From a virus (lineage: Duplodnaviria; Caudoviricetes), in IMG/VR virus record IMGVR_UViG_3300032225_001437, positions 32,001 to 96,000 of that record: a DNA stretch of 64,000 bases. One strand, written 5' to 3'. Shown piece after piece: positions 6,556-32,046 of this stretch (position 1 is the stretch's first letter; the number at the start of each line of letters is the position of its first letter). A model generated the notes under the pieces. That model made no database searches, had not been told where the DNA came from, and was given only the letters and a program-made list of their open reading frames with translations. Position numbers and translations under genes: made by a program.

Positions 6556-7317
6556 TTAAAACTTACTTATAAATTGTTTTTTCAACAATTCAAAATATTG
6601 TATTTCCTGCTCACTCAGAGTAACTGAATCAATATTTTGCCTAAAACTATCAGCGGCATGTTGTAGATTGTTTATATCCCCAACAAATTTAAAATTTTCT
6701 GTTGCACCTTTGGTATCGTAGGCATCCATTATGATATGATATCTATTTTCTGTTGACTTATTTGTCACTTGATGATTCCTATTCACCCAGAGAATATACA
6801 CCGATCCATCAGCTGGCATGTGCAAATCATACCCGTCGCAATGGTGTATACATTGCTCATTGGTCCATAAAGGAATATGTATACGAGCCATATATACATC
6901 AGGAGTAGCATCGCTATGCAATAGTGTAGCGCCGCCTGGACGTAACAAACTGACCCTGGCCCGGCGTGGTGTAAACCCTTGATCACGAATTTGATCTAGC
7001 ACACGGGCTATTTCACCACGACATCCATTGGTAGGATTTGCGTGTTCAAAACTATGACTGATATTTAAAAATTTACTTGCACGATAGTTTGGTTTACCTT
7101 CAGGGAATATAATCTTTTCACCTGGATGACCTGTATGTCCAATTTCCCAACCGTCTTGCCAAGTACCGGTTCGTGTTAACAAACTCCAGCCACCAAAATT
7201 GTCGTAACCGTATTCATCACCTTGAAATATAGGATCCCCTAACGTGAATACATATTGCTTCACGTCTTTGCGTAGACAATCTATGTCTACTGTGATGTTG
7301 AGTTTTTCAAAAAACAT
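6556..7317 (-). CDS. aspartyl/asparaginyl beta-hydroxylase-family (cupin) protein
   Basis: RARVSLLRPGG..LHSD, RIHIPLWTN, HQVTNKSTENRYHIIMD. Confidence 0.75.
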   Translation of the reverse strand: MFFEKLNITVDIDCLRKDVKQYVFTLGDPIFQGDEYGYDNFGGWSLLTRTGTWQDGWEIGHTGHPGEKIIFPEGKPNYRASKFLNISHSFEHANPTNGCRGEIARVLDQIRDQGFTPRRARVSLLRPGGATLLHSDATPDVYMARIHIPLWTNEQCIHHCDGYDLHMPADGSVYILWVNRNHQVTNKSTENRYHIIMDAYDTKGATENFKFVGDINNLQHAADSFRQNIDSVTLSEQEIQYFELLKKQFISKF

Positions 7318-7328
7318 AATTAAAATTT

Positions 7329-7402
7329 TGGTGCCCCTTGACAGAATCGAACTGCCAATTGATGATTACAAATCAACTGTTATACCATTTAACTAAAAGG
7401 GC
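7329..7402 (-). tRNA. tRNA-Thr(UGU)
   Basis: Cloverleaf, anticodon loop TT-TGT-AA, TTCGA T-loop, CCA end. Confidence 0.93.
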
Positions 7403-7448
7403 GTAATGCTACTTATTTGTTACAAAGTGTATCCATAAATATCATGTA

Positions 7449-7595
7449 ATGAAACTTCAACACGATGACCTAGGCTTCTATTTTGAATTCAAGTATGCTC
7501 GATATATCGAGCATCCGGGCTGGTACCTAATGGGCACAACATTACTGGGTATCTTTGCATTCAATCTAGGATTTTTAATAGGGTCAATTTGGTAG
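7449..7595 (+). CDS. 48-aa membrane protein
   Basis: MKLQHDDLGFYFEFKYARYIEHPGWYLMGTTLLGIFAFNLGFLIGSIW; preceded by a TAAATA motif. Confidence 0.5.
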   Translation: MKLQHDDLGFYFEFKYARYIEHPGWYLMGTTLLGIFAFNLGFLIGSIW

Positions 7596-7667
7596 GACCT
7601 ACTGGATTCGAACCAGGGACCCTGGAGGTAGAAGCTCCATGCTCTAATCCAACTGAGCTAAGGTCCT
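7590..7667 (-). tRNA. tRNA-Arg(UCU)
   Basis: Anticodon arm TGGAG-CTTCTAC-CTCCA; CCA end. Confidence 0.93.
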
Positions 7668-7674
7668 GCGTATT

Positions 7675-7764
7675 TGGCGGAGAGTGTGGGATTCGAACCC
7701 ACGATAGTGTTGCCACTATGACGGTTTAGTAGACCGTTGGTTTCAGCCGCTCACCCAACTCTCC
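7675..7764 (-). tRNA. tRNA-Ser with an unusual ACU anticodon
   Basis: GGAGAG acceptor, long variable arm, G73; anticodon arm ACGGT-CTACTAA-ACCGT. Confidence 0.9.
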
Positions 7765-7818
7765 GTAATTTTACTGTCATATACCTTTTGATAAATACCT
7801 TTATAAACAGCGTATATT

Positions 7819-8250
7819 ATGTTACACACAATCACAACCATTTCAGACGATCTTGCCCACCTTATCAAGGACGATCCTGTGCGCCCAGAAATACCCCTGT
7901 CTGATCGCGTAAACTCAAACAGTCGAATTTACATGTTAAAAGATGGTGATCAAACCCTGGCCGTTACCTGTGTTAAATTTTTAGAAACAATTCCTTCAGC
8001 AGTGGATGATTTGGTTGTGATAATCGGCAGTGCAACCACAGCAGTATTCTACACTATCTGGAGCTACACAGCCGGTGCCGGGCGAGACCTTATTGTAGCA
8101 GCTCAACGGTCAATTGAATCCGAATTTCCAGAGATTCAAACTTATGTGACCCTAAGTCCCAAGACCGAAATGGCTCGGCGCTTTCATCTCAAAAACGGCG
8201 CTCGTCAATTACGAGAAAACACCGACACCATCAACTACATCTACAAATAA
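7819..8250 (+). CDS. GNAT-like protein resembling the malonyl-CoA decarboxylase catalytic domain
   Basis: AVFYTIWSY...GRDLI...EFPEIQTYVTLSP resembles the MCD motifs AIFYSIS / FVTLSP. Confidence 0.55.
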   Translation: MLHTITTISDDLAHLIKDDPVRPEIPLSDRVNSNSRIYMLKDGDQTLAVTCVKFLETIPSAVDDLVVIIGSATTAVFYTIWSYTAGAGRDLIVAAQRSIESEFPEIQTYVTLSPKTEMARRFHLKNGARQLRENTDTINYIYK

Positions 8251-8252
8251 CA

Positions 8253-8414
8253 TCACTTGTTTAAAATCTGTGTCTGTTTAAAGGCCTTGATCTTGGCGTG
8301 AGCACTGGCTTGACTAGCCATAATCTGTCTACTGGCCTCGGCTCGTTTTTCAGTCTTGGTCCATTGTCCTGCTAAGGTACGACTCAATTCAGTTGCTGTT
8401 TGTTGTTTTGCCAT
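8253..8414 (-). CDS. 53-aa hypothetical protein
   Basis: Manual translation MAKQQTATELSRTLAGQWTKTEKR...; AGGA SD. Confidence 0.6.
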   Translation of the reverse strand: MAKQQTATELSRTLAGQWTKTEKRAEASRQIMASQASAHAKIKAFKQTQILNK

Positions 8415-8422
8415 TTTGATTC

Positions 8423-8557
8423 CTATCTAAAAAATTTTCTAACAATCCATTTTAACCAAAGATAACGGACCGGCCGGGTTGGGAAAAAATCAACACCCCA
8501 TCCTACTTCTCGGGGCATATTGCCATAGGCTCGATCTAGTGTATCTTTACGGGTCAT
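8423..8557 (-). CDS. 44-aa hypothetical protein
   Basis: MTRKDTLDRAYGNMPREVG...; ATGA overlap with the rpoZ-like stop. Confidence 0.5.
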   Translation of the reverse strand: MTRKDTLDRAYGNMPREVGWGVDFFPTRPVRYLWLKWIVRKFFR

Positions 8558-8775
8558 TTTACCTTGGCCATGTATTGAAGCATGTCAATTTTACCTTGTT
8601 GCATTTCTAACAAGGCATCAACTGGAGTAACATACGCACCGGTTTCTCGTGCTCGACGCTTGAGTTCACGCAGACGTTGTGATACAGCAACGATCATGTC
8701 GTAACGAGAGCCAGCAAGCCCTACACATTTTTCAAGATCAACTTGGCTACTACGACTATCAACGATTGGTTTCAT
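8554..8775 (-). CDS. rpoZ: RNA polymerase omega subunit homologue
   Basis: GSRYDMIVAVSQRLREL and TPVDALLEMQQGKI align with RpoZ GNRFDLVLVAARRARQ / TTVIALREIEEGLI. Confidence 0.7.
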   Translation of the reverse strand: MKPIVDSRSSQVDLEKCVGLAGSRYDMIVAVSQRLRELKRRARETGAYVTPVDALLEMQQGKIDMLQYMAKVK

Positions 8776-8798
8776 ATCTTCTCCTGTTGTAAATGTAT

Positions 8799-8827
8799 AT
8801 TATACACTAAAAAATACTGACAGTCAA
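8799..8827 (-). promoter_or_regulatory. sigma70-type promoter
   Basis: TTGACT-N17-TATAAT. Confidence 0.75.
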
Positions 8828-8844
8828 GCATTAATTTTTAAAAC

Positions 8845-8921
8845 TGGTGCCCCGGGAAGGATTTGAACCTTCAACAGCTCCCTTCTGAGGAGAGTGCGTC
8901 TACCAATTGCGCCACCGGGGT
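8845..8921 (-). tRNA. tRNA-Leu(CAG) with a short variable loop and an A1:C72 mismatch
   Basis: Leu-type D arm GGCGCAATTGGTAGACGC; anticodon arm CTCTC-CTCAGAA-GGGAG; 5-nt variable region. Confidence 0.85.
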
Positions 8922-8935
8922 CGACGTATTTAATA

Positions 8936-9013
8936 TGGAGCAACGGGCTGGATTTGAACCAGCGGTTTTAGGGATTTGCAATCCCTTGCATTGGGCCGCT
9001 CTGCCACCGTTGC
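8936..9013 (-). tRNA. tRNA-Cys(GCA)
   Basis: AGGGA-TTGCAAA-TCCCT; U73; CCA. Confidence 0.93.
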
Positions 9014-9021
9014 CTTGCTAC

Positions 9022-9096
9022 TGGGGTACTGTAAGAGTATCGATCTCTTGCTACGAGCTCCACAAACTCGGGTGCTACCATTACACCAACAATACC
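9022..9096 (-). tRNA. tRNA-His(GUG)
   Basis: G-1:C73, GTG anticodon; atypical T-loop ATCGATA. Confidence 0.88.
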
Positions 9097-9102
9097 ATTG
9101 TC

Positions 9103-9176
9103 TGGAGCGGGATATCGGAATCGAACCGATGACGAAAGATTGGAAATCTTTAGTTTTGCCCCTAAACTAATCCCGC
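9103..9176 (-). tRNA. tRNA-Gly(UCC)
   Basis: GCGGG acceptor, TCC anticodon, U73. Confidence 0.93.
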
Positions 9177-9184
9177 ATAAAAAC

Positions 9185-9269
9185 TGGTGCGACTGGCCAG
9201 AATCGAACTGGCACGCCCGCAAGCGAGAGATTTTAAGTCTCTTGTGTCTACCTATTTCACCACAGTCGC
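9185..9269 (-). tRNA. tRNA-Leu(UAA)
   Basis: AGAGA-CTTAAAA-TCTCT; long variable arm. Confidence 0.95.
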
Positions 9270-9289
9270 AAAATATCTCTCTAACTAAC

Positions 9290-9364
9290 TGGCACTCGGA
9301 AGGGGAATCGAACCCCTCTTCCCGCCGTGAAAGGGCGGTGTCCTAACCGATAGACGACCCGAGC
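9290..9364 (-). tRNA. tRNA-Glu(UUC)
   Basis: CCGCC-CTTTCAC-GGCGG. Confidence 0.95.
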
Positions 9365-9371
9365 GTAAATC

Positions 9372-9456
9372 TGGTGGAGAATACTGGGATCGAACCAGTC
9401 GTACCCGAAGGCGGCGGATTTACAGTCCACTGCATCACCATTGATGCTTCTTCTCC
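9372..9456 (-). tRNA. tRNA-Tyr(GUA)
   Basis: CTGTAAA loop, long variable arm, CCA. Confidence 0.92.
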
Positions 9457-9460
9457 AAAA

Positions 9461-9531
9461 ACATATAAGAACACACTCACGTTTCTAGTGTCTCTGTTGG
9501 CTATGGGCCAACCGAATGTGTTCATATATGC
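9461..9531 (-). ncRNA. small structured RNA candidate (long closing stem)
   Basis: GCATATATGAACACATTC...GAGTGTGTTCTTATATGT pairs over about 17 bp and encloses the hairpin GTTGGC-CCATA-GCCAAC. Confidence 0.45.
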
Positions 9532-9756
9532 TCTTCAGCCCCCGGCGGTCAACTATATTCTAAACTCTGCAACACCCTACTGGTGTCGCCTCTGGTTGGC
9601 CGATCAGCCTCAGCAGAGAAACAAGTTAGACCTCATCCGCTACACGACAGGGCTCGTTATCGCATTGCCAGCGCCAGTTGGGGTTAGACTGGGACCACCC
9701 GTAGCAGTCAGCTACTTCTCATCGTGTGGGTCACACTAGCCGACGACACTCGGCAC
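9532..9756 (-). ncRNA. manA-like structured RNA
   Basis: GC-rich multi-hairpin region between tRNAs; the element order hairpin-UAGUGUG, GAUGAGAAG-hairpin-GGUGGU, CUGGCAAUG, CCUGUC matches my recollection of the manA motif. Confidence 0.55.
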
Positions 9757-9761
9757 GTTCT

Positions 9762-9838
9762 TGGTCGGAGTACGAGGGTTCGAACCTCGGACCTCCTGGT
9801 CCCAAACCAGGCGCACTACCAGGCTGTGCTATACTCCG
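9762..9838 (-). tRNA. tRNA-Pro(UGG)
   Basis: CGGAGT acceptor; CCTGG-TTTGGGA-CCAGG. Confidence 0.95.
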
Positions 9839-9840
9839 AC

Positions 9841-10044
9841 TTATTTCTTATCAAACTTGGGATCTTCGTAGATCACTTCTTTTTCTTCTTTATGCATGTA
9901 GTCTGGAAGCAAATTCCAACCCCAACTTTTCCAATACTTGTAAATGATATTATTAATAACCACCGCAGCGATTACAATAATAATAAATCCAAGTGCTGTC
10001 AAAATACTACCTGCTAAAAACACTGCCGCCTGATCAATATCCAT
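9841..10044 (-). CDS. small membrane protein
   Basis: One long hydrophobic segment; GAGG SD. Confidence 0.7.
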   Translation of the reverse strand: MDIDQAAVFLAGSILTALGFIIIVIAAVVINNIIYKYWKSWGWNLLPDYMHKEEKEVIYEDPKFDKK

Positions 10045-10057
10045 GTTTACCTCTTAA

Positions 10058-10131
10058 TGGTTGCGGGTCCTGGAATCGCACCAGGGACTAGAGCTTATGA
10101 GACTCTCGAGATACTCCTTCTCCAACCCGCG
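10058..10131 (-). tRNA. tRNA-Met(CAU) with an initiator-type acceptor stem
   Basis: CGCGGG...CCCGCAACCA (C1:A72 mismatch), CTCATAA loop; lacks the three G:C pairs of the initiator anticodon stem. Confidence 0.85.
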
Positions 10132-10143
10132 ATCGAAAACACT

Positions 10144-10172
10144 ATTTTACACTAACTGCTATACCTTGTCAA
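10144..10172 (-). promoter_or_regulatory. internal sigma70-type promoter in the tRNA array
   Basis: TTGACA-N17-TAAAAT just upstream of tRNA-Met. Confidence 0.65.
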
Positions 10173-10180
10173 ACTGTTTC

Positions 10181-10254
10181 TGGCGAATCCCCAGAGACTC
10201 GAACTCCGACGAACGGTTTTGGAGACCGTTATGCTGCCATTACATCAGGGACTC
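10181..10254 (-). tRNA. tRNA-Trp(CCA)
   Basis: ACGGT-CTCCAAA-ACCGT; G73. Confidence 0.92.
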
Positions 10255-10260
10255 AACTTC

Positions 10261-10335
10261 TGGCGGTCTCGACGAGAATCGAACTCGTCCCATCCCCGTG
10301 ACAGGGGGATATTCTAACCAATAAACTACGAGACC
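10261..10335 (-). tRNA. tRNA-Asp(GUC)
   Basis: TCCCC-CTGTCAC-GGGGA; G73. Confidence 0.95.
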
Positions 10336-10345
10336 GTTTAAAACT

Positions 10346-10951
10346 TTACATCGCAGGACCGTTGCCGTTCCTGAATCCAACTTCACCACCTTCTGCTTCG
10401 ATGCGTCGGATCACGTCTTCAAACAAGATCGGAGCAAAATCAGTTTGTTCCACGCAAACGCAATGATAACGAACATCATTCTCGTCACTGTATAAAACTT
10501 CACCGGTCTTAGCATCGACACCACGAGCCCGCTTGACACGATTTGCGTGTAAGTGTCCATGGATGTTGACACCAAAACGACCAAGGCTTTCTGCGTGAAC
10601 AGGAATATGACTCAATATCATTCCGTTCATGACATGATATGCTCTAAGCTCACGAAAGTGTTCACGATATTCCTCATCACGAAAAATGTCGTGGTTACCA
10701 CGGATTAAGATCTTGTCGCCGTTTAAGCGACTCATGATCTTTAATGCCTTGCGGTTGATGACAACGTCGCCTAAGTGGTAGACCTTGTCAGTGGGCTTGA
10801 CTCTTTCGTTCCAAGCCTTGACCATAGCTTCGTCCATTTCCTCAGGACTATCCCAAGGACGTAACTTTGTAACACCGTCATTACGGGTGAAGCGGCAGAC
10901 GCCGGTATGTCCGAAATGTGTGTCGCTTACTAAAAATACACTAGGCATCAT
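10346..10951 (-). CDS. calcineurin-like metallophosphoesterase
   Basis: SDTHFGH, HLGD, GNHD, SHIP, HGHLH motifs; AAGGAGG SD before MMPSV. Confidence 0.9.
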   Translation of the reverse strand: MMPSVFLVSDTHFGHTGVCRFTRNDGVTKLRPWDSPEEMDEAMVKAWNERVKPTDKVYHLGDVVINRKALKIMSRLNGDKILIRGNHDIFRDEEYREHFRELRAYHVMNGMILSHIPVHAESLGRFGVNIHGHLHANRVKRARGVDAKTGEVLYSDENDVRYHCVCVEQTDFAPILFEDVIRRIEAEGGEVGFRNGNGPAM

Positions 10952-10979
10952 GCCCTCCTTTCTTTTAACTGTTACTATT

Positions 10980-11008
10980 ATTATAGCAAATGGACTATTT
11001 TGGGTCAA
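10980..11008 (-). promoter_or_regulatory. sigma70-type early promoter (TTGACC family)
   Basis: TTGACC-N17-TATAAT. Confidence 0.8.
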
Positions 11009-11039
11009 CCTACTAATTTGTAATACTTTTGTATTAACG

Positions 11040-11345
11040 TCAAGCAGTCAGCCACTTTTCATTGGATTCCAATACCAGACTTTCTGCTCCATCATATTCA
11101 TCAATGCGGAAACGAGCTCCTGCTGGCACCCACTTTACTTCTAAATCTTTCAGCCCTCCGCAATACACATCTGGATACTTTAATTCCATATAGGTAACAA
11201 TTTTATCAAAATTTTCTTGCTCAACCCACTCTACAATGCTAGGATCATAGATCAATTGTTCATTGCCGTGCCAGGTATACCAACCAGCACCGTAGCCAGG
11301 GCTTACCAACACAGCTACTCGACCATCACGAATTAATTTTTTCAT
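11040..11345 (-). CDS. hypothetical phage protein
   Basis: VAVLVSPGYGAGWYTW...FRIDEYDGAESL. Confidence 0.75.
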   Translation of the reverse strand: MKKLIRDGRVAVLVSPGYGAGWYTWHGNEQLIYDPSIVEWVEQENFDKIVTYMELKYPDVYCGGLKDLEVKWVPAGARFRIDEYDGAESLVLESNEKWLTA

Positions 11346-11484
11346 TGTTTTTTAATTTCTTTACTGCATCAATTTGTGCTATCATCGCTTCGACCTGTGC
11401 TCGGGCCCGAGCGACCTTACTCTCAAGCAAGGCCATACGTTCTTCTGGATTTAAAAAAAATTTATTTTCTTTGTTGTCTGTCAT
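11326..11484 (-). CDS. 52-aa coiled-coil hypothetical protein
   Basis: Manual translation MTDNKENKFFLNPEERMALLESKVARARAQVEAMIAQ...; first gene after the attenuator. Confidence 0.5.
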   Translation of the reverse strand: MTDNKENKFFLNPEERMALLESKVARARAQVEAMIAQIDAVKKLKNNEKINS

Positions 11485-11498
11485 ATTTTTCTCTCAAT

Positions 11499-11529
11499 AA
11501 AAAACCCCGGACTGTTTAGTTTCGGGGTT
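11499..11529 (-). terminator. intrinsic terminator of the putative attenuator
   Basis: AACCCCGAAACT-AAAC-AGTCCGGGGTT followed by a U-run. Confidence 0.8.
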
Positions 11530-11553
11530 GTTGAATAAAGTTAAAACTTACTG

Positions 11554-11649
11554 CTATTCAAAACCCACCCTACAATCTTCACAGCCATAGACCCACAGTC
11601 CAATTATTGGATTGTTTGCTAAAGAAGGATGCAAGTTATTAATCATCAT
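11554..11649 (-). CDS. putative attenuator leader peptide (31 aa, leaderless)
   Basis: MMINNLHPSLANNPIIGLWVYGCEDCRVGFE*; ATG 7 nt after the -10 box; the stop lies in the antiterminator arm. Confidence 0.7.
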   Translation of the reverse strand: MMINNLHPSLANNPIIGLWVYGCEDCRVGFE

Positions 11650-11656
11650 AGTAAGT

Positions 11657-11685
11657 ATTATACAGGTTTATTTATGCCGTGTCAA
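11657..11685 (-). promoter_or_regulatory. sigma70-type promoter with an embedded TAAATA
   Basis: TTGACA-cggcataaataaacctg-TATAAT. Confidence 0.85.
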
Positions 11686-11703
11686 CCAGCGTATTGCCAA
11701 AAT

Positions 11704-11726
11704 AAAAGGCCCCGAAGGGCCTTTTT
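11704..11726. terminator. bidirectional intrinsic terminator
   Basis: AAAAGGCCC-CGAA-GGGCCTTTTT. Confidence 0.85.
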
Positions 11727-11750
11727 GAGAACTCTAATCAAACTGTTTGA

Positions 11751-12476
11751 TTAGAATGATTTTGCTACAGAGAAAACTGCGGCATTGCGATACAACTTTT
11801 GACCATTTACGGTGTTGGCTGTGTTGAACGCTGTAGTCTTGTCGCCGTTGGTGTAATACTTGGCGGCCAAGTTCCAACCTTGTAAGTCGTAACCTACACC
11901 AAAGTTGTAGTCGTTATAGTCCAATGAAGAACTATTAGCAACATTAGTCTTACCTGCGTGAGCAAGCAAACTGATCTTTGAACCAGCGATTGGATATGCT
12001 ACATCAGCTTGGTAGTATGCTGTGCCTTGAGCATTGGCTGTACCAAAGTAGCCATTACCCAATGTACGATTATACTTGACGCTTACTGGACCATAACCTA
12101 GACCAACATAACCTTCGTATGTGTCAAAGTTTGAACCTGTACGAGCTGAGGTAGTGGCACGTGGATAAAAATAATTATAAGAACCAACATCAAGTGTTAG
12201 ACCTTTGTAAATATCTTTCTTCCAACCAGCATATACATCTGACTCAACACCTGAACCGTTTGTGTAAACTTGTGAGCTTACTGAACTGTTCCAGTTACCG
12301 ATATAGAAACCGCTTGAGTGAGCGTAGTCAATACCGCCTTGGACAGCAGGAGCATTTTGGGATTGGCTGATACCACGGAAGCGGTAGTCTGAGGTCAATC
12401 CTAAATTGCCAGATACTTGAGCGTGAGCTGAAGTAATGCCAGCCAATACGAATAATGCTAATAATAATTTCTTCAT
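11751..12476 (-). CDS. TorF-family (TIGR02001-like) putative outer-membrane porin
   Basis: Signal peptide; SDYRFRGISQS..PAVQGGIDY...GFYIGNWNS; C-terminal Phe. Confidence 0.88.
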   Translation of the reverse strand: MKKLLLALFVLAGITSAHAQVSGNLGLTSDYRFRGISQSQNAPAVQGGIDYAHSSGFYIGNWNSSVSSQVYTNGSGVESDVYAGWKKDIYKGLTLDVGSYNYFYPRATTSARTGSNFDTYEGYVGLGYGPVSVKYNRTLGNGYFGTANAQGTAYYQADVAYPIAGSKISLLAHAGKTNVANSSSLDYNDYNFGVGYDLQGWNLAAKYYTNGDKTTAFNTANTVNGQKLYRNAAVFSVAKSF

Positions 12477-12596
12477 TTGTTTTATTTCCTTTTAAAAGTA
12501 ATGCTTAGAATAATATTTAGTGGTTTTTACTAGTGGCCAGTAATTTTTGCACACTTTCCTGCCATTTTTATAGTTAACGGCGTAGTTAACTAAGTT

Positions 12597-12623
12597 AAAA
12601 GAAACCCGCCGAAGCGGGTTCTT
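12597..12623 (-). terminator. intrinsic terminator after the tmRNA
   Basis: AACCCGC-TTCG-GCGGGTTTCTTTT. Confidence 0.85.
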
Positions 12624-12624
12624 A

Positions 12625-12932
12625 CTATTTTCTGTTACGAGGTATAATTACCCTAAGCAGTGATTAAACTGCTAAAGATTGGCGTTGTGCTGAACGAGCA
12701 GAGAACTTGACGTTCTTACCAGATACAGTTACTTCGCCTTTAGATGCGTTTGCATTTAAAGTATTTGCTTGATTTACAGTCATCGCCTACTGTGTTGCCT
12801 CTTTCGCTATCTCACCATGTCGAATCCAAATACAGGCCCACCTAAATATACTATATCAATATACTTAGGTGGACCTGCCCGGGGTCGAACCGGGGTCCAC
12901 AGTGCCTTCACTACGAAGGAATTACAACAATT
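12625..12932 (-). ncRNA. ssrA: two-piece (circularly permuted) tmRNA
   Basis: The acceptor piece (T-arm CCCGG-TTCGACC-CCGGG, CAGGTCCACC ending at 12868) precedes an AT-rich hairpin spacer and the coding piece starting GGGCCTG...GGATTCGAC at 12839; G3:U70; tag ORF 12664-12753. Confidence 0.88.
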
Positions 12933-12944
12933 CTTTATTTAATG

Positions 12945-13214
12945 TTAAACAGCTTCGGCTGTTGCAGCCGTTGGTGCTGGACTAAATCCGTTGCAAAGTG
13001 CTACATACCCAGTTGCATCATTAATATCTGACCAACGATTTACATAGGTAAGCGTAGGTTCATTAAACATATCTACTCCAACTTGGCGACCTGCGGCAAT
13101 AACATCTTTTTTAAAGTTGCTTATTGCTAGCTGTTCTGATGCAGTAACTGGTCTGCCAAAAACTATAGTGCTTTGAGCGTTGGCAAGAAATTGTGTCTGT
13201 GCTAATTTTGTCAT
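12945..13214 (-). CDS. hypothetical protein
   Basis: ORF with an AAGGAG SD and an upstream TAAATA. Confidence 0.7.
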   Translation of the reverse strand: MTKLAQTQFLANAQSTIVFGRPVTASEQLAISNFKKDVIAAGRQVGVDMFNEPTLTYVNRWSDINDATGYVALCNGFSPAPTAATAEAV

Positions 13215-13268
13215 TGTAAAACTCCTTTTTGTTATGCGCTATTATTTACTAACAGCAGTATTAACTAC

Positions 13269-13472
13269 TTATGCAGGCACAATATTTGATGCCTGCTTGC
13301 CTTTTGGGCCTTGTACCAAATCAAATTTTACCACTTGATTTTCTTTCAATGTTTTAAATCCATTGATATTGATTGCTGAAAAATGTGCAAATACATCTTC
13401 TCCACCGTCGTCGGGTGTGATAAATCCAAAACCTTTTGCATCATTAAACCATTTTACTTTACCTACTACCAT
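13269..13472 (-). CDS. csp: cold-shock domain protein
   Basis: [33 protein letters not shown]. Confidence 0.97.
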
Positions 13473-13506
13473 AATATACTGCTTCCTTTTAAATTAATCA
13501 TGAGTG

Positions 13507-13677
13507 CTAATTATAGCCTTTTACAACATTGTTGTCAACCTTGGGATTACCTTTTGCATGAGCATCTAAAAAAGCACGATCACGCTCGGCCGGCAACTTT
13601 CCACAACTTAACCGATCCCATTCTTTTTCGGAATAGTAATACTGATTAACAGGTTTTTTCTGCTGTTCCACGATCAT
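13507..13677 (-). CDS. hypothetical protein
   Basis: Start moved to MIVEQQ so it does not overlap the tRNA. Confidence 0.55.
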   Translation of the reverse strand: MIVEQQKKPVNQYYYSEKEWDRLSCGKLPAERDRAFLDAHAKGNPKVDNNVVKGYN

Positions 13678-13692
13678 GTTATTTAGCGTGTT

Positions 13693-13767
13693 TGGTGGGC
13701 CAGCTTGGAATTGAACCAAGACTCGACCGATTATGAGTCGGTTGCTTTACCATTAAGCTACTGGCCC
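13693..13767 (-). tRNA. tRNA-Ile2(CAU) (lysidine type)
   Basis: GGGCC acceptor, ACCGA-CTCATAA-TCGGT; has its own promoter TTGACA-N17-TATACT at 13776-13804. Confidence 0.85.
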
Positions 13768-13784
13768 TAGCGTATAGTATAACA

Positions 13785-14156
13785 CTAGGGCTCGTAGTTG
13801 TCAAGGAATTGTTGTAAATTTCCGTATAGGTTTACCATTACCGCTTCCCGGCTGCCAAAAAATATAATTTTTTTAGGTATGCCTTTGACTGCATGAATAT
13901 AGTAGGGCATTTGCATTTTGCGGTCTAATTTTAAGATAAGCTGTTTGTTAAACGTATGTGGATCGTCAATACTGTATGAGTAATGCTCTAGTTCCAGATC
14001 CTCAGCAAGTGTTTGATAACCAATGCTGGTCAATCTCATACCACCGTTGCGTCTTAAATTAAACCACCAACTGGGAACGGCACTTTCTACGCTGATACGT
14101 TGTTCATCGGGTAGTAGTGCAATTAACTCTTGTGTGAGTTTTCTTTTATCACGCAC
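13785..14156 (-). CDS. hypothetical protein
   Basis: ORF in a co-directional gene run. Confidence 0.75.
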   Translation of the reverse strand: MRDKRKLTQELIALLPDEQRISVESAVPSWWFNLRRNGGMRLTSIGYQTLAEDLELEHYSYSIDDPHTFNKQLILKLDRKMQMPYYIHAVKGIPKKIIFFGSREAVMVNLYGNLQQFLDNYEP

Positions 14157-14157
14157 A

Positions 14158-14445
14158 TCAAGGATAAATCGATTGCCCTGCTGTCAACAGAACCACAGTG
14201 AACTTTTCGGTTTTAAATTGCGTGTTTAATTTTTTTGCCAAGTTCTTGGCATGGCCAGGATTTGAGAATGAAACTTTTTTGTATTTTGGCCCGGGATATT
14301 GGACCAGGAGGTTTGATGTTTTGAGATTGATAGGCTTGGCGTCATAGAATACAGCCCACACACCTTCTGAAGCTAAAACCTGCTCACACTTATAGGTAGA
14401 CTTGTTTGTGTGCTCAATTAATACGTTGGGTTTTGGACGACTCAT
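14158..14445 (-). CDS. hypothetical protein
   Basis: AGGAG SD; YPGPKYKKVSFSNPGHA. Confidence 0.8.
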   Translation of the reverse strand: MSRPKPNVLIEHTNKSTYKCEQVLASEGVWAVFYDAKPINLKTSNLLVQYPGPKYKKVSFSNPGHAKNLAKKLNTQFKTEKFTVVLLTAGQSIYP

Positions 14446-14490
14446 ATCATTAAACTCCTATATTTTATTTATCTAGAAATATAGGTAGTT

Positions 14491-14706
14491 TTAGAATGTT
14501 CCGCCTTCCATTTTTACGGTGATTACTTCGGTGTCTTTTTGGAGGGTTTGCACTGTTTGTTCACGTAAAGCCTGAAGTTCTAATAAAAGTCTAGTGATGT
14601 CAGCGTGTAAGTCCTGAGCATCTTTAATGCTCATTATGAAGTCTCGAGCACCTCGGGCCTGCTGACCTTGAACTCGTTCAACAAATTTATTTAGATGAAT
14701 TGTCAT
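14491..14706 (-). CDS. hypothetical protein
   Basis: Start at MTIHLNKF. Confidence 0.7.
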   Translation of the reverse strand: MTIHLNKFVERVQGQQARGARDFIMSIKDAQDLHADITRLLLELQALREQTVQTLQKDTEVITVKMEGGTF

Positions 14707-31273: not shown

Positions 31274-32046
31274 CTTGGGGCAAAGTCCTGTTGTAGTTTA
31301 ATATTGTCCATGAACTCTTTCTTGGTTCCAGAGTCTGTAGCAAAGCTACCTTTTAATACTGTGGTCTGTGTTAAACTTGAATGGGCCATGATGCCACGAT
31401 TTTCACAACATCCGTGAACTGCTTGTATGTAAACACCGACGTTTTCTGATTCTGTAGCCCGCATTATTTCTCTTGCGATGTCGTTACATAGTTCTTCTTG
31501 AAGTGTGCCACGACGAGCACACCACTGAGCGATCCTAGTATATTTAGACAGGCCAATAAGTTTATTAGCGGCGATGATTCCGATGTAAGCAACACCAGAC
31601 ACAGGCTGATGATGGTGACTGCACATAGAACGCAATTCGCTACGAACAACAAGCATACCTTCGTATCTATCTTCTGAATCATTTGGAAAAGCTGTTGCAT
31701 CTGGTGCTGGATCATATCGACCTCCCATAATTTCGTTAAAATACATTTTAGCAAGGCGACGTGCTGTGCCCTTTGAGTTAGGATCGTTTTCACGATCAAT
31801 TAGTAATCGATCCAATACAGTTTCAAATGCTTCTGCAGCTTCGTTGATTAGAATTTCCTTGTCACCTTCGTGCAAGTAATCACTGATGTTGTCACCTGCC
31901 CAGAATCGTTTGTTATCACGCTTCATTGCAAAACGAATAGCATCGCCTAGATAACCTTCTTGATAATCTTTGTCGCTCATCATCACAGCGGCATCTTCGT
32001 AGCCAGGATGATACGGTGCTTCTTCTACTAATTTTTTATTTGTCAT
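31270..32046 (-). CDS. folE: GTP cyclohydrolase I
   Basis: SMCSHHHQP, IGLSKYTRI, LQEEL, HGCCENRG. Confidence 0.95.
   Translation of the reverse strand: MTNKKLVEEAPYHPGYEDAAVMMSDKDYQEGYLGDAIRFAMKRDNKRFWAGDNISDYLHEGDKEILINEAAEAFETVLDRLLIDRENDPNSKGTARRLAKMYFNEIMGGRYDPAPDATAFPNDSEDRYEGMLVVRSELRSMCSHHHQPVSGVAYIGIIAANKLIGLSKYTRIAQWCARRGTLQEELCNDIAREIMRATESENVGVYIQAVHGCCENRGIMAHSSLTQTTVLKGSFATDSGTKKEFMDNIKLQQDFAPR

Follow-up and report, generated by a model that had tools for sequence, protein, structure and literature searches.

Leader-peptide attenuators are well known in the enterobacteria, where they include trpL, hisL, leuL, and pheL, as well as the multivalent leaders thrL (Thr/Ile) and ilvL (Ile/Leu/Val). 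In E. coli, the pheST attenuator, with its pheM leader, controls phenylalanyl-tRNA synthetase and responds to charged tRNA. Why phages carry tRNA genes and how these are expressed is an open question; the tRNAs have been proposed to match codon usage, to make up for host tRNAs that are degraded, or to evade defences that cut tRNAs. In the literature that we searched, attenuators preceding phage tRNA genes were not described. Here we describe an element preceding a phage tRNA operon that is likely, with a probability of about 0.68, to be a trp-type ribosome-mediated transcription attenuator that senses tRNA supply. This interpretation is drawn from sequence alone, with no expression, Term-seq, or ribosome-profiling data.

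The element lies on the minus strand of a 64,000-nucleotide stretch of viral DNA (hereafter the window; positions 32,001 to 96,000 of IMG/VR record IMGVR_UViG_3300032225_001437), and the window is part of a 156-kb virus contig with a CheckV completeness of 43%. Therefore, the source is a jumbo phage. A first-pass annotation, made without database searches, had described a consensus promoter, a leader ORF, two competing hairpins, one of them a U-tailed terminator, and an insulating terminator further upstream, and it was found that all of these held on the minus strand. The promoter (11685-11657, minus strand) is a perfect 12/12 match to the sigma-70 consensus TTGACA-N17-TATAAT, with the -35 box TTGACA at 11685-11680, the -10 box TATAAT at 11662-11657, and a spacer of 17 nt. 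It is followed by an ORF of 31 codons with a TAG stop (11649-11554, minus strand), evident both in the ORF list and by direct reading of the sequence. The ATG at 11649 is only 7 nt past the -10 box, with neither a Shine-Dalgarno sequence nor space for one, and the leader mRNA is therefore leaderless or nearly so. The leader lacks only three amino acids, Lys, Gln, and Thr, as had been claimed, and its codon 19 (11593-11595, minus strand) encodes Trp, the residue that is most conserved in the family of leaders described below.

The last codons of the leader together with its stop codon form the 5′ arm of a predicted antiterminator (11566-11554, minus strand), and the 3′ arm is at 11538-11525 (minus strand), both arms being assigned from the sequence and its fold. 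This hairpin has a folding energy of -14.0 kcal/mol (z = -2.55). The final five bases of the 3′ arm, AACCC (11529-11525), also open the 5′ arm of the attenuator terminator (11529-11499, minus strand), which consists of a 7-bp outer stem, a 3-bp inner stem, and a run of six U residues (-11.5 kcal/mol). Because AACCC is common to both structures, the antiterminator and terminator hairpins are mutually exclusive. The minimum free energy of the whole transcript was unexceptional (z = -1.44), so that the two local hairpins alone stand out, and an Rfam scan gave no family for the element. A plus-strand match to STnc130 scored 34.8 bits against a threshold of 55 and was put down to chance. Upstream of the promoter there is a further intrinsic terminator (11726-11699, minus strand), composed of a 9-bp GC-rich hairpin and a U-tract (-14.9 kcal/mol), which closes the preceding gene and insulates the leader promoter from transcription arriving from upstream.

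That preceding gene (12476-11751, minus strand) encodes a porin-like protein of the Gcw_chp family (Pfam PF09694, E = 5e-51) with a signal peptide; it lies directly upstream of the cassette and is kept in that position in about 40 viral contigs. Further upstream, at 12981-12573 (minus strand), the phage encodes a permuted (two-piece) tmRNA of the betaproteobacterial type with a 29-residue tag, and many relatives (L114-L117, L125, L127, L129, L130, L189, L159, and L122) have tmRNA homologues on the upstream side of the leader cassette. On the downstream side, an ORF of 52 aa with its own ribosome-binding site (11484-11326, minus strand) begins 15 nt past the U-tract and is the first gene gated by the terminator. 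No Pfam family was found for it, and a homologous small ORF also comes after the leader in L117. It is followed by a 101-aa ORF (11345-11040, minus strand), identified by homology searches and Pfam as a widespread phage hypothetical protein, and then by a calcineurin-like metallophosphoesterase gene (10951-10346, minus strand; Pfam PF12850 and PF00149), which by synteny is a conserved companion of the tRNA arrays in relatives.

The tRNA array itself occupies 10335-8845 (minus strand) and contains Asp, Trp, Met, Pro, Tyr, Glu, Leu(UAA), Gly(UCC), His, Cys, and Leu(CAG), as identified with ARAGORN and Rfam. The eleven tRNAs that had been listed for this interval were thus confirmed, 10 of the 11 by ARAGORN, and the remaining one, tRNA-Tyr(GTA) at 9372-9456, by Rfam and a relaxed ARAGORN search only. 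Two internal promoters that had been raised as a caveat were confirmed as well. One (11008-10980, minus strand; TTGACC, 17 nt, TATAAT, with an extended -10 TG) matches the consensus at 11/12 positions and could drive the phosphoesterase gene and the tRNAs while bypassing the attenuator; the other, found in the promoter scan, is within the array region (10172-10144, minus strand). In the window, the distance from the terminator to the first tRNA is 1.16 kb, and the interval contains two ORFs and the 11/12 promoter. Because these separate the terminator from the first tRNA, the window is one of the looser cases, with a coupling of leader to array that is weaker than in most relatives.

Several other features of this region were noted. 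Between 7000 and 14500 there are six minus-strand promoters, beginning at 13804, 13538, 11685, 11008, 10172, and 8827, all with 17-nt spacers and matches of 11-12/12 to the consensus, and they split the tRNA region of the window into several strong transcription units. The last of them (8827-8799) belongs to a 73-aa ORF (8775-8554, minus strand) that has a borderline match to RNA polymerase omega/Rpb6 (PF01192, 26.0 bits with a cut-off of 26) and is also conserved within the tRNA region in relatives. The interval of about 300 nt that separates tRNA-Pro from tRNA-Tyr (9761-9457, minus strand) has neither a tRNA nor a convincing ORF. The unusual anticodon ACU belongs to a tRNA-Ser at 7764-7675 (minus strand) that recurs in L122, L124, L128, L131, L140, and L193, and a tRNA-Phe(AAA) was found in L116 and L140.

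The first-pass annotation had claimed that the leader contains a cognate codon for every tRNA of the array, and had cautioned that 31 varied codons might cover many tRNAs by chance. Under strict wobble rules, each of the ten non-Met array tRNAs does have a cognate codon in the window leader. We compared this with 200,000 random 30-codon ORFs drawn from the codon usage of the long ORFs of the contig, which on average covered 5.6 of the ten tRNAs; only 0.075% of them covered all ten (P = 7.5e-4). The caution is in this sense answered for the window, with the reservation that the test was post hoc, and the weight of the argument has to rest on the relatives. Of the 30 leader codons considered, 14 are cognate to array tRNAs and 16 are not.

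Related contigs were reached through the neighbouring proteins, after which blastn gave four homologous leaders, and two pattern scans of IMG/VR, one with the promoter and one with the terminator loop, enlarged the family to 56 distinct cassettes on jumbo-phage contigs of up to about 365 kb. Isolated phages yielded no match when searched with the region by blastn, and tblastn with the 101-aa neighbour found only distant phages of Vibrio, Erwinia, and Pseudomonas; hence there is no cultured relative at hand. The conservation of the anatomy in these 56 relatives is a direct observation. A TTGAC-N17-TAYAAT promoter was present in all 56 cassettes, and the terminator likewise in all members of the family. 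The ATG is 6-7 nt past the -10 box in 35 cassettes and 9-11 nt past it in 18, the leader ORF has 20-48 codons, and its stop codon is 28-37 nt ahead of the 5′ arm of the terminator in 56/56.

The leader frame is open in every one of the 56 cassettes, compared to 13% of shuffled spans; the two alternative frames are open in 0/56 and 10/56. Among close relatives the indels in the leader are multiples of three and so remain in frame. None of the scan matches having both the promoter and the terminator was without a leader ORF. The short ORF directly past the promoter, one hallmark of a leader-peptide attenuator, is thus kept open by selection. The peptides themselves are very diverse: one mid-peptide Trp is near-universal and Cys is common, and Trp is present in every leader except those of a clade of short leaders, whose arrays have no tRNA-Trp. 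The leader C-termini vary and change frame over a conserved GGG motif. Because the frame in which GGG falls changes from clade to clade, its conservation is that of an RNA motif rather than of a peptide.

The predicted RNA switch was evaluated in 51 cassettes by folding the transcript as it would be present before synthesis of the terminator 3′ arm. It was found that the terminator 5′ arm pairs upstream in 51/51 of these folds, and that in about 45 the pairing partner falls between 14 and 2 nt ahead of the stop codon, for the most part at about 12 to 5 nt. The bare criterion that the terminator arm be paired upstream was also satisfied by 62% of shuffles, and the informative part of this result is the conserved position of the partner beside the stop. 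The sequences of the antiterminator arms differ by clade, with complementarity kept: lower-stem pairs include UU/AA, UUC/GAA, UG/CA, GC/GC, and CAGGG/CCCUG, and some clades have wholly different stems. The pairing energy of a cassette's own arms was -17.8 kcal/mol, compared to -12.3 kcal/mol with arms taken from dissimilar cassettes; once the shared CCC core was excluded, the own 3′ arm was better than only about 70% of dissimilar arms.

On a shallow MAFFT alignment of 13 sequences, the covariation of the antiterminator was weak, with one pair showing double changes, and 83% of the alignment cells were paired, compared to 30-49% when the partners were slid. The RNAalifold consensus of the MAFFT alignment was the terminator, with compensatory changes, and the antiterminator was not recovered. 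Because RNAalifold gave the terminator only and the formal pair counts were weak, we rely on the per-sequence folds and on the energies of own versus foreign arms. On this basis, an alternative antiterminator having bases in common with the terminator 5′ arm, which is another hallmark of an attenuator, is inferred to be present, with the qualification that formal covariation is weak. We also infer that the stop codon, which is inside the 5′ arm in all 56 cassettes, is placed so that a terminating ribosome would mask the antiterminator and not the terminator. A ribosome is reported to block a terminator only if the terminator is a few bases past the stop codon (PMC4824070), and a ribosome at the stop of these leaders, about 30 nt away, would be too distant to hinder the terminator, in agreement with that distance effect. 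Neither the fold of the window nor RNAalifold showed a conserved 1:2 pause or anti-antiterminator hairpin upstream of the antiterminator. In the absence of such a hairpin, transcripts that are not translated would read through by default.

The genes downstream of the cassettes were also compared. Same-strand tRNA genes follow 53 of the 56 cassettes at a median distance of 372 nt. In four cassettes a tRNA-Gly(GCC) begins 8-14 nt past the terminator U-tract, and in many others a tRNA-Trp begins about 180-230 nt past the terminator. The interval from the terminator to the first tRNA has no consensus-like promoter in 48/53 cassettes, and therefore the tRNAs of most relatives are reachable only through the terminator. 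An exception is L184, in which the cassette is present with only one tRNA within 10 kb.

Two further RNAs were seen in these loci. Between the attenuator terminator and tRNA-Trp, several relatives (L132:4677-4852 and L189:11276-11478; also L141, L157, L136, and L176) have a conserved non-ORF segment of about 180-200 nt that contains conserved blocks and a terminal hairpin, with no Rfam family at the gathering threshold. We consider it likely to be a structured RNA that is co-transcribed with the tRNAs. In L159, a GOLLD RNA (Rfam RF02032, 211 bits; 10890-11350, plus strand) is embedded in the tRNA array.

A check that had been proposed for the window, namely whether leader codons co-vary with tRNA content in related phages, was positive at the level of amino acids and for the tRNAs proximal to the leader. 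The sample consisted of 30 loci, later increased to 32, for which no less than 2.4 kb downstream was available, three of the contigs having been extended. Amino acids of the array were absent from the locus's own leader in 7 of 257 cases, compared to 12% with leaders from other clades. In a permutation over 13 clade representatives, 3.0 misses were observed and 14.5 +/- 3.3 were expected (P about 1e-4), and the association was robust to removal of the short-leader clade (P = 2.5e-4), to removal of Trp and Cys (P = 0.002), and to reduction to nine superclades (P = 0.003). The clades share ancestry, and these permutation P-values are approximate.

The match was a property of the proximal tRNAs. 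Within 0-2.5 kb of the terminator, 2 of 211 amino acids (0.9%) were missing, compared to 12.2% across clades (P = 2e-4), whereas for distal tRNAs (2.5-8 kb) there was no association (9.7% missing compared to 12.7%; P = 0.29). Equal-length windows taken from proteins of the same loci missed 52.9 +/- 5.4 (25%) of the 211 proximal amino acids, of which the leaders missed 2. This statistical match between leaders and proximal tRNAs is, like the anatomy and its conservation, shown by the data.

Individual clades provide examples. In the leaders of 20-22 codons (L143, L158, L159, and L180), Trp and Cys codons are missing, and so are tRNA-Trp and tRNA-Cys from the arrays behind them; the tRNAs in these arrays are for Gly, Glu, Ala, Leu, Ile, Asp, Asn, and Thr, a set that comes close to the make-up of the peptide. 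Between two sister clades, differences in Cys and His codons are matched by differences in the corresponding tRNAs. The coverage persisted after the last 3-5 leader codons were trimmed, which fits the geometry of the switch, in which only stalls well before the hairpin arm should count. Not every example survived. L174, which has no Cys codon, was at one stage taken as an array without tRNA-Cys, and this was refuted when extension of the contig revealed a tRNA-Cys 2.7 kb downstream; similarly, an Arg contrast between two sister clades failed after a distal tRNA-Arg came to light. Leaders of the MKH type hold a Lys codon with no tRNA-Lys in view, and the inclusion is one-way in general, in that leaders also carry residues for which no tRNA is nearby.

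At the level of synonymous codons, there was an excess of cognate codons under strict wobble (P about 0.002-0.003), which was gone when relaxed U34 wobble was allowed and was equal for distal tRNAs, and it may be that this excess merely reflects general codon bias. A further hallmark of an attenuator, regulatory codons cognate to the regulated function, is present at the level of amino acids, with codons that occur singly and not in runs.

The working model that we propose is by analogy: that the leader is translated, in which direction the switch works, and what triggers it physiologically are all inferred from the geometry and from the established trp/his/ilv mechanism. The strong constitutive promoter would start the mRNA at, or within a few bases of, the leader AUG, and a ribosome would load once the 5′ end emerges. 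When translation proceeds smoothly to the stop codon, the ribosome would cover the 5′ arm of the antiterminator, the terminator would fold, and transcription would end at about 11499. When a charged tRNA is scarce, the ribosome would stall about seven or more codons earlier, leaving the 5′ arm free to pair first with AACCC. The antiterminator so formed would block the terminator, and RNA polymerase would continue into the small ORFs and the tRNA genes. A shortage of the tRNA for any leader amino acid would in this way raise transcription of the array, and an ample supply would shut the array off, as negative feedback. The leaderless start may stand in for the pause hairpin of the trp leader.

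Each tRNA is represented in the leader by only 1-3 codons, without runs, and for this reason the sensitivity to mild tRNA shortage may be low. Candidate triggers include defence nucleases, shut-off of the host with depletion of host tRNAs, and the demand of late genes, and the sequence cannot discriminate between these. The earlier interpretation of the window as an attenuator that polls many tRNA species is thus supported by the conserved architecture, the hairpin, and the co-variation, with no experimental evidence; the link that had been drawn to anticodon-nuclease defence is pure inference.

A bolder reading is that the leader is a roster, a many-input OR gate that is rewritten as tRNA genes come and go, and that the array is an inducible counter-measure. 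The operon would then be on exactly when any roster tRNA is limiting, as when host tRNAs are degraded or cut by anticodon nucleases. Our confidence falls a little short of even odds for this version, and we hold it only tentatively.

Of the rival explanations, the one that survives best is a leader attenuator that reports general translation capacity, such as ribosome availability, leaderless initiation, or elongation rate, with the amino acid match as a by-product. Its anatomy would be identical to that of the tRNA-sensing reading, and it is favoured by the small number of codons for each tRNA, by the 16/30 window leader codons that are not cognate to the array, and by a codon-level signal that is not specific to proximal tRNAs. 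Against it, the gap in coverage between own leaders and those of other clades holds for proximal but not for distal tRNAs, the clade without Trp and Cys codons has arrays without those tRNAs, and 25% of the array amino acids are absent from protein windows of the same loci, compared to 0.9% for the leaders. We therefore regard this rival as unlikely.

An independent small gene, producing a micropeptide or a small RNA, is less plausible still. According to this explanation, expression of the tRNAs would depend on leaky read-through or on other promoters, and the role of the hairpin would be to stabilise the RNA. Such genes are usually laid out as a promoter, about 150 nt, and a terminator, the window does have internal promoters, and L184 keeps the cassette without an array. 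However, the peptide is poorly conserved, with Trp as its only near-universal residue, a length of 20-48 residues, and a C-terminus that shifts frame over an RNA motif, and the always-open ORF argues against a pure small RNA. The content of the leader tracks the adjacent tRNAs, in four relatives a tRNA so close to the terminator (8-14 nt) leaves no space for a promoter, and there is no Rfam family match. These points make the small-gene explanation very unlikely.

Very unlikely also is a constitutive partial terminator or insulator that fixes, early in infection, the proportion of short and long transcripts, perhaps overridden by a phage antitermination factor, with the ORF being incidental. 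Early regions of phages often pair consensus promoters with nearby terminators, and the window has six near-consensus minus-strand promoters in 7.5 kb. This explanation leaves unaccounted for the frame that is open in every cassette, the constant placement of the stop codon in the hairpin arm, the competing pairing across diverged sequences, and the match to tRNAs.

Other candidates were rejected more briefly. A membrane micropeptide or type I toxin was ruled out by the polar, proline-rich leaders of several clades. A TnaC-like arrest peptide sensing free Trp is unlikely, the terminator being intrinsic and one clade being without any Trp. Coupling of the pyrBI type was ruled out because about 30 nt separate the end of the ORF from the terminator, and a T-box riboswitch by the absence of any Rfam T-box match in 7000-14500, even at E <= 1.

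If attenuation in response to tRNA supply, the reading that we prefer, is true, the phage measures tRNA sufficiency and adjusts supply. Attenuation would then extend from amino acid enzymes to tRNA genes, with a natural many-input sensor whose translation starts on a leaderless mRNA. The 56 natural variants, with their differing leaders and arrays, are a ready series for reporter tests, and the rule that the amino acids of an array are contained within its leader could aid the annotation of transcription units in uncultured jumbo phages.

In comparison with known systems, the phage element resembles the trpL/hisL/ilvL type in having a promoter-proximal short ORF, an intrinsic terminator before the genes, and an antiterminator with bases common to the terminator 5′ arm. 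It also resembles them in that the end of the ORF is set for a ribosome at the stop codon to mask the antiterminator and in that the content of the leader is tied to the regulated function. Of the structural criteria for a leader-peptide attenuator, only the 1:2 hairpin is missing. The sensing of more than one amino acid, as proposed for the phage leader, already occurs in ilvL and thrL. In contrast to these systems, the phage element targets tRNA genes and not biosynthetic enzymes, and its leader has 1-3 codons each for up to about 12-19 amino acids, whereas the enterobacterial leaders have runs for one to three. The phage mRNA is leaderless or nearly so, has no Shine-Dalgarno sequence, and has no 1:2 pause hairpin that we could find, and the system is phage-borne, with a leader that changes with the gain and loss of tRNA genes.

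The pheST attenuator with its pheM leader is similar in that leader-peptide attenuation controls a gene of the translation apparatus and answers to charged-tRNA supply, but it senses one amino acid, regulates a synthetase gene rather than tRNA genes, and is chromosomal. T-box elements likewise sense tRNA status through a choice between terminator and antiterminator ahead of translation-related genes, but they bind uncharged tRNA directly, without translation, by way of the Stem I specifier and the T-box bulge, whereas the phage element has a conserved ORF that is predicted to be translated.
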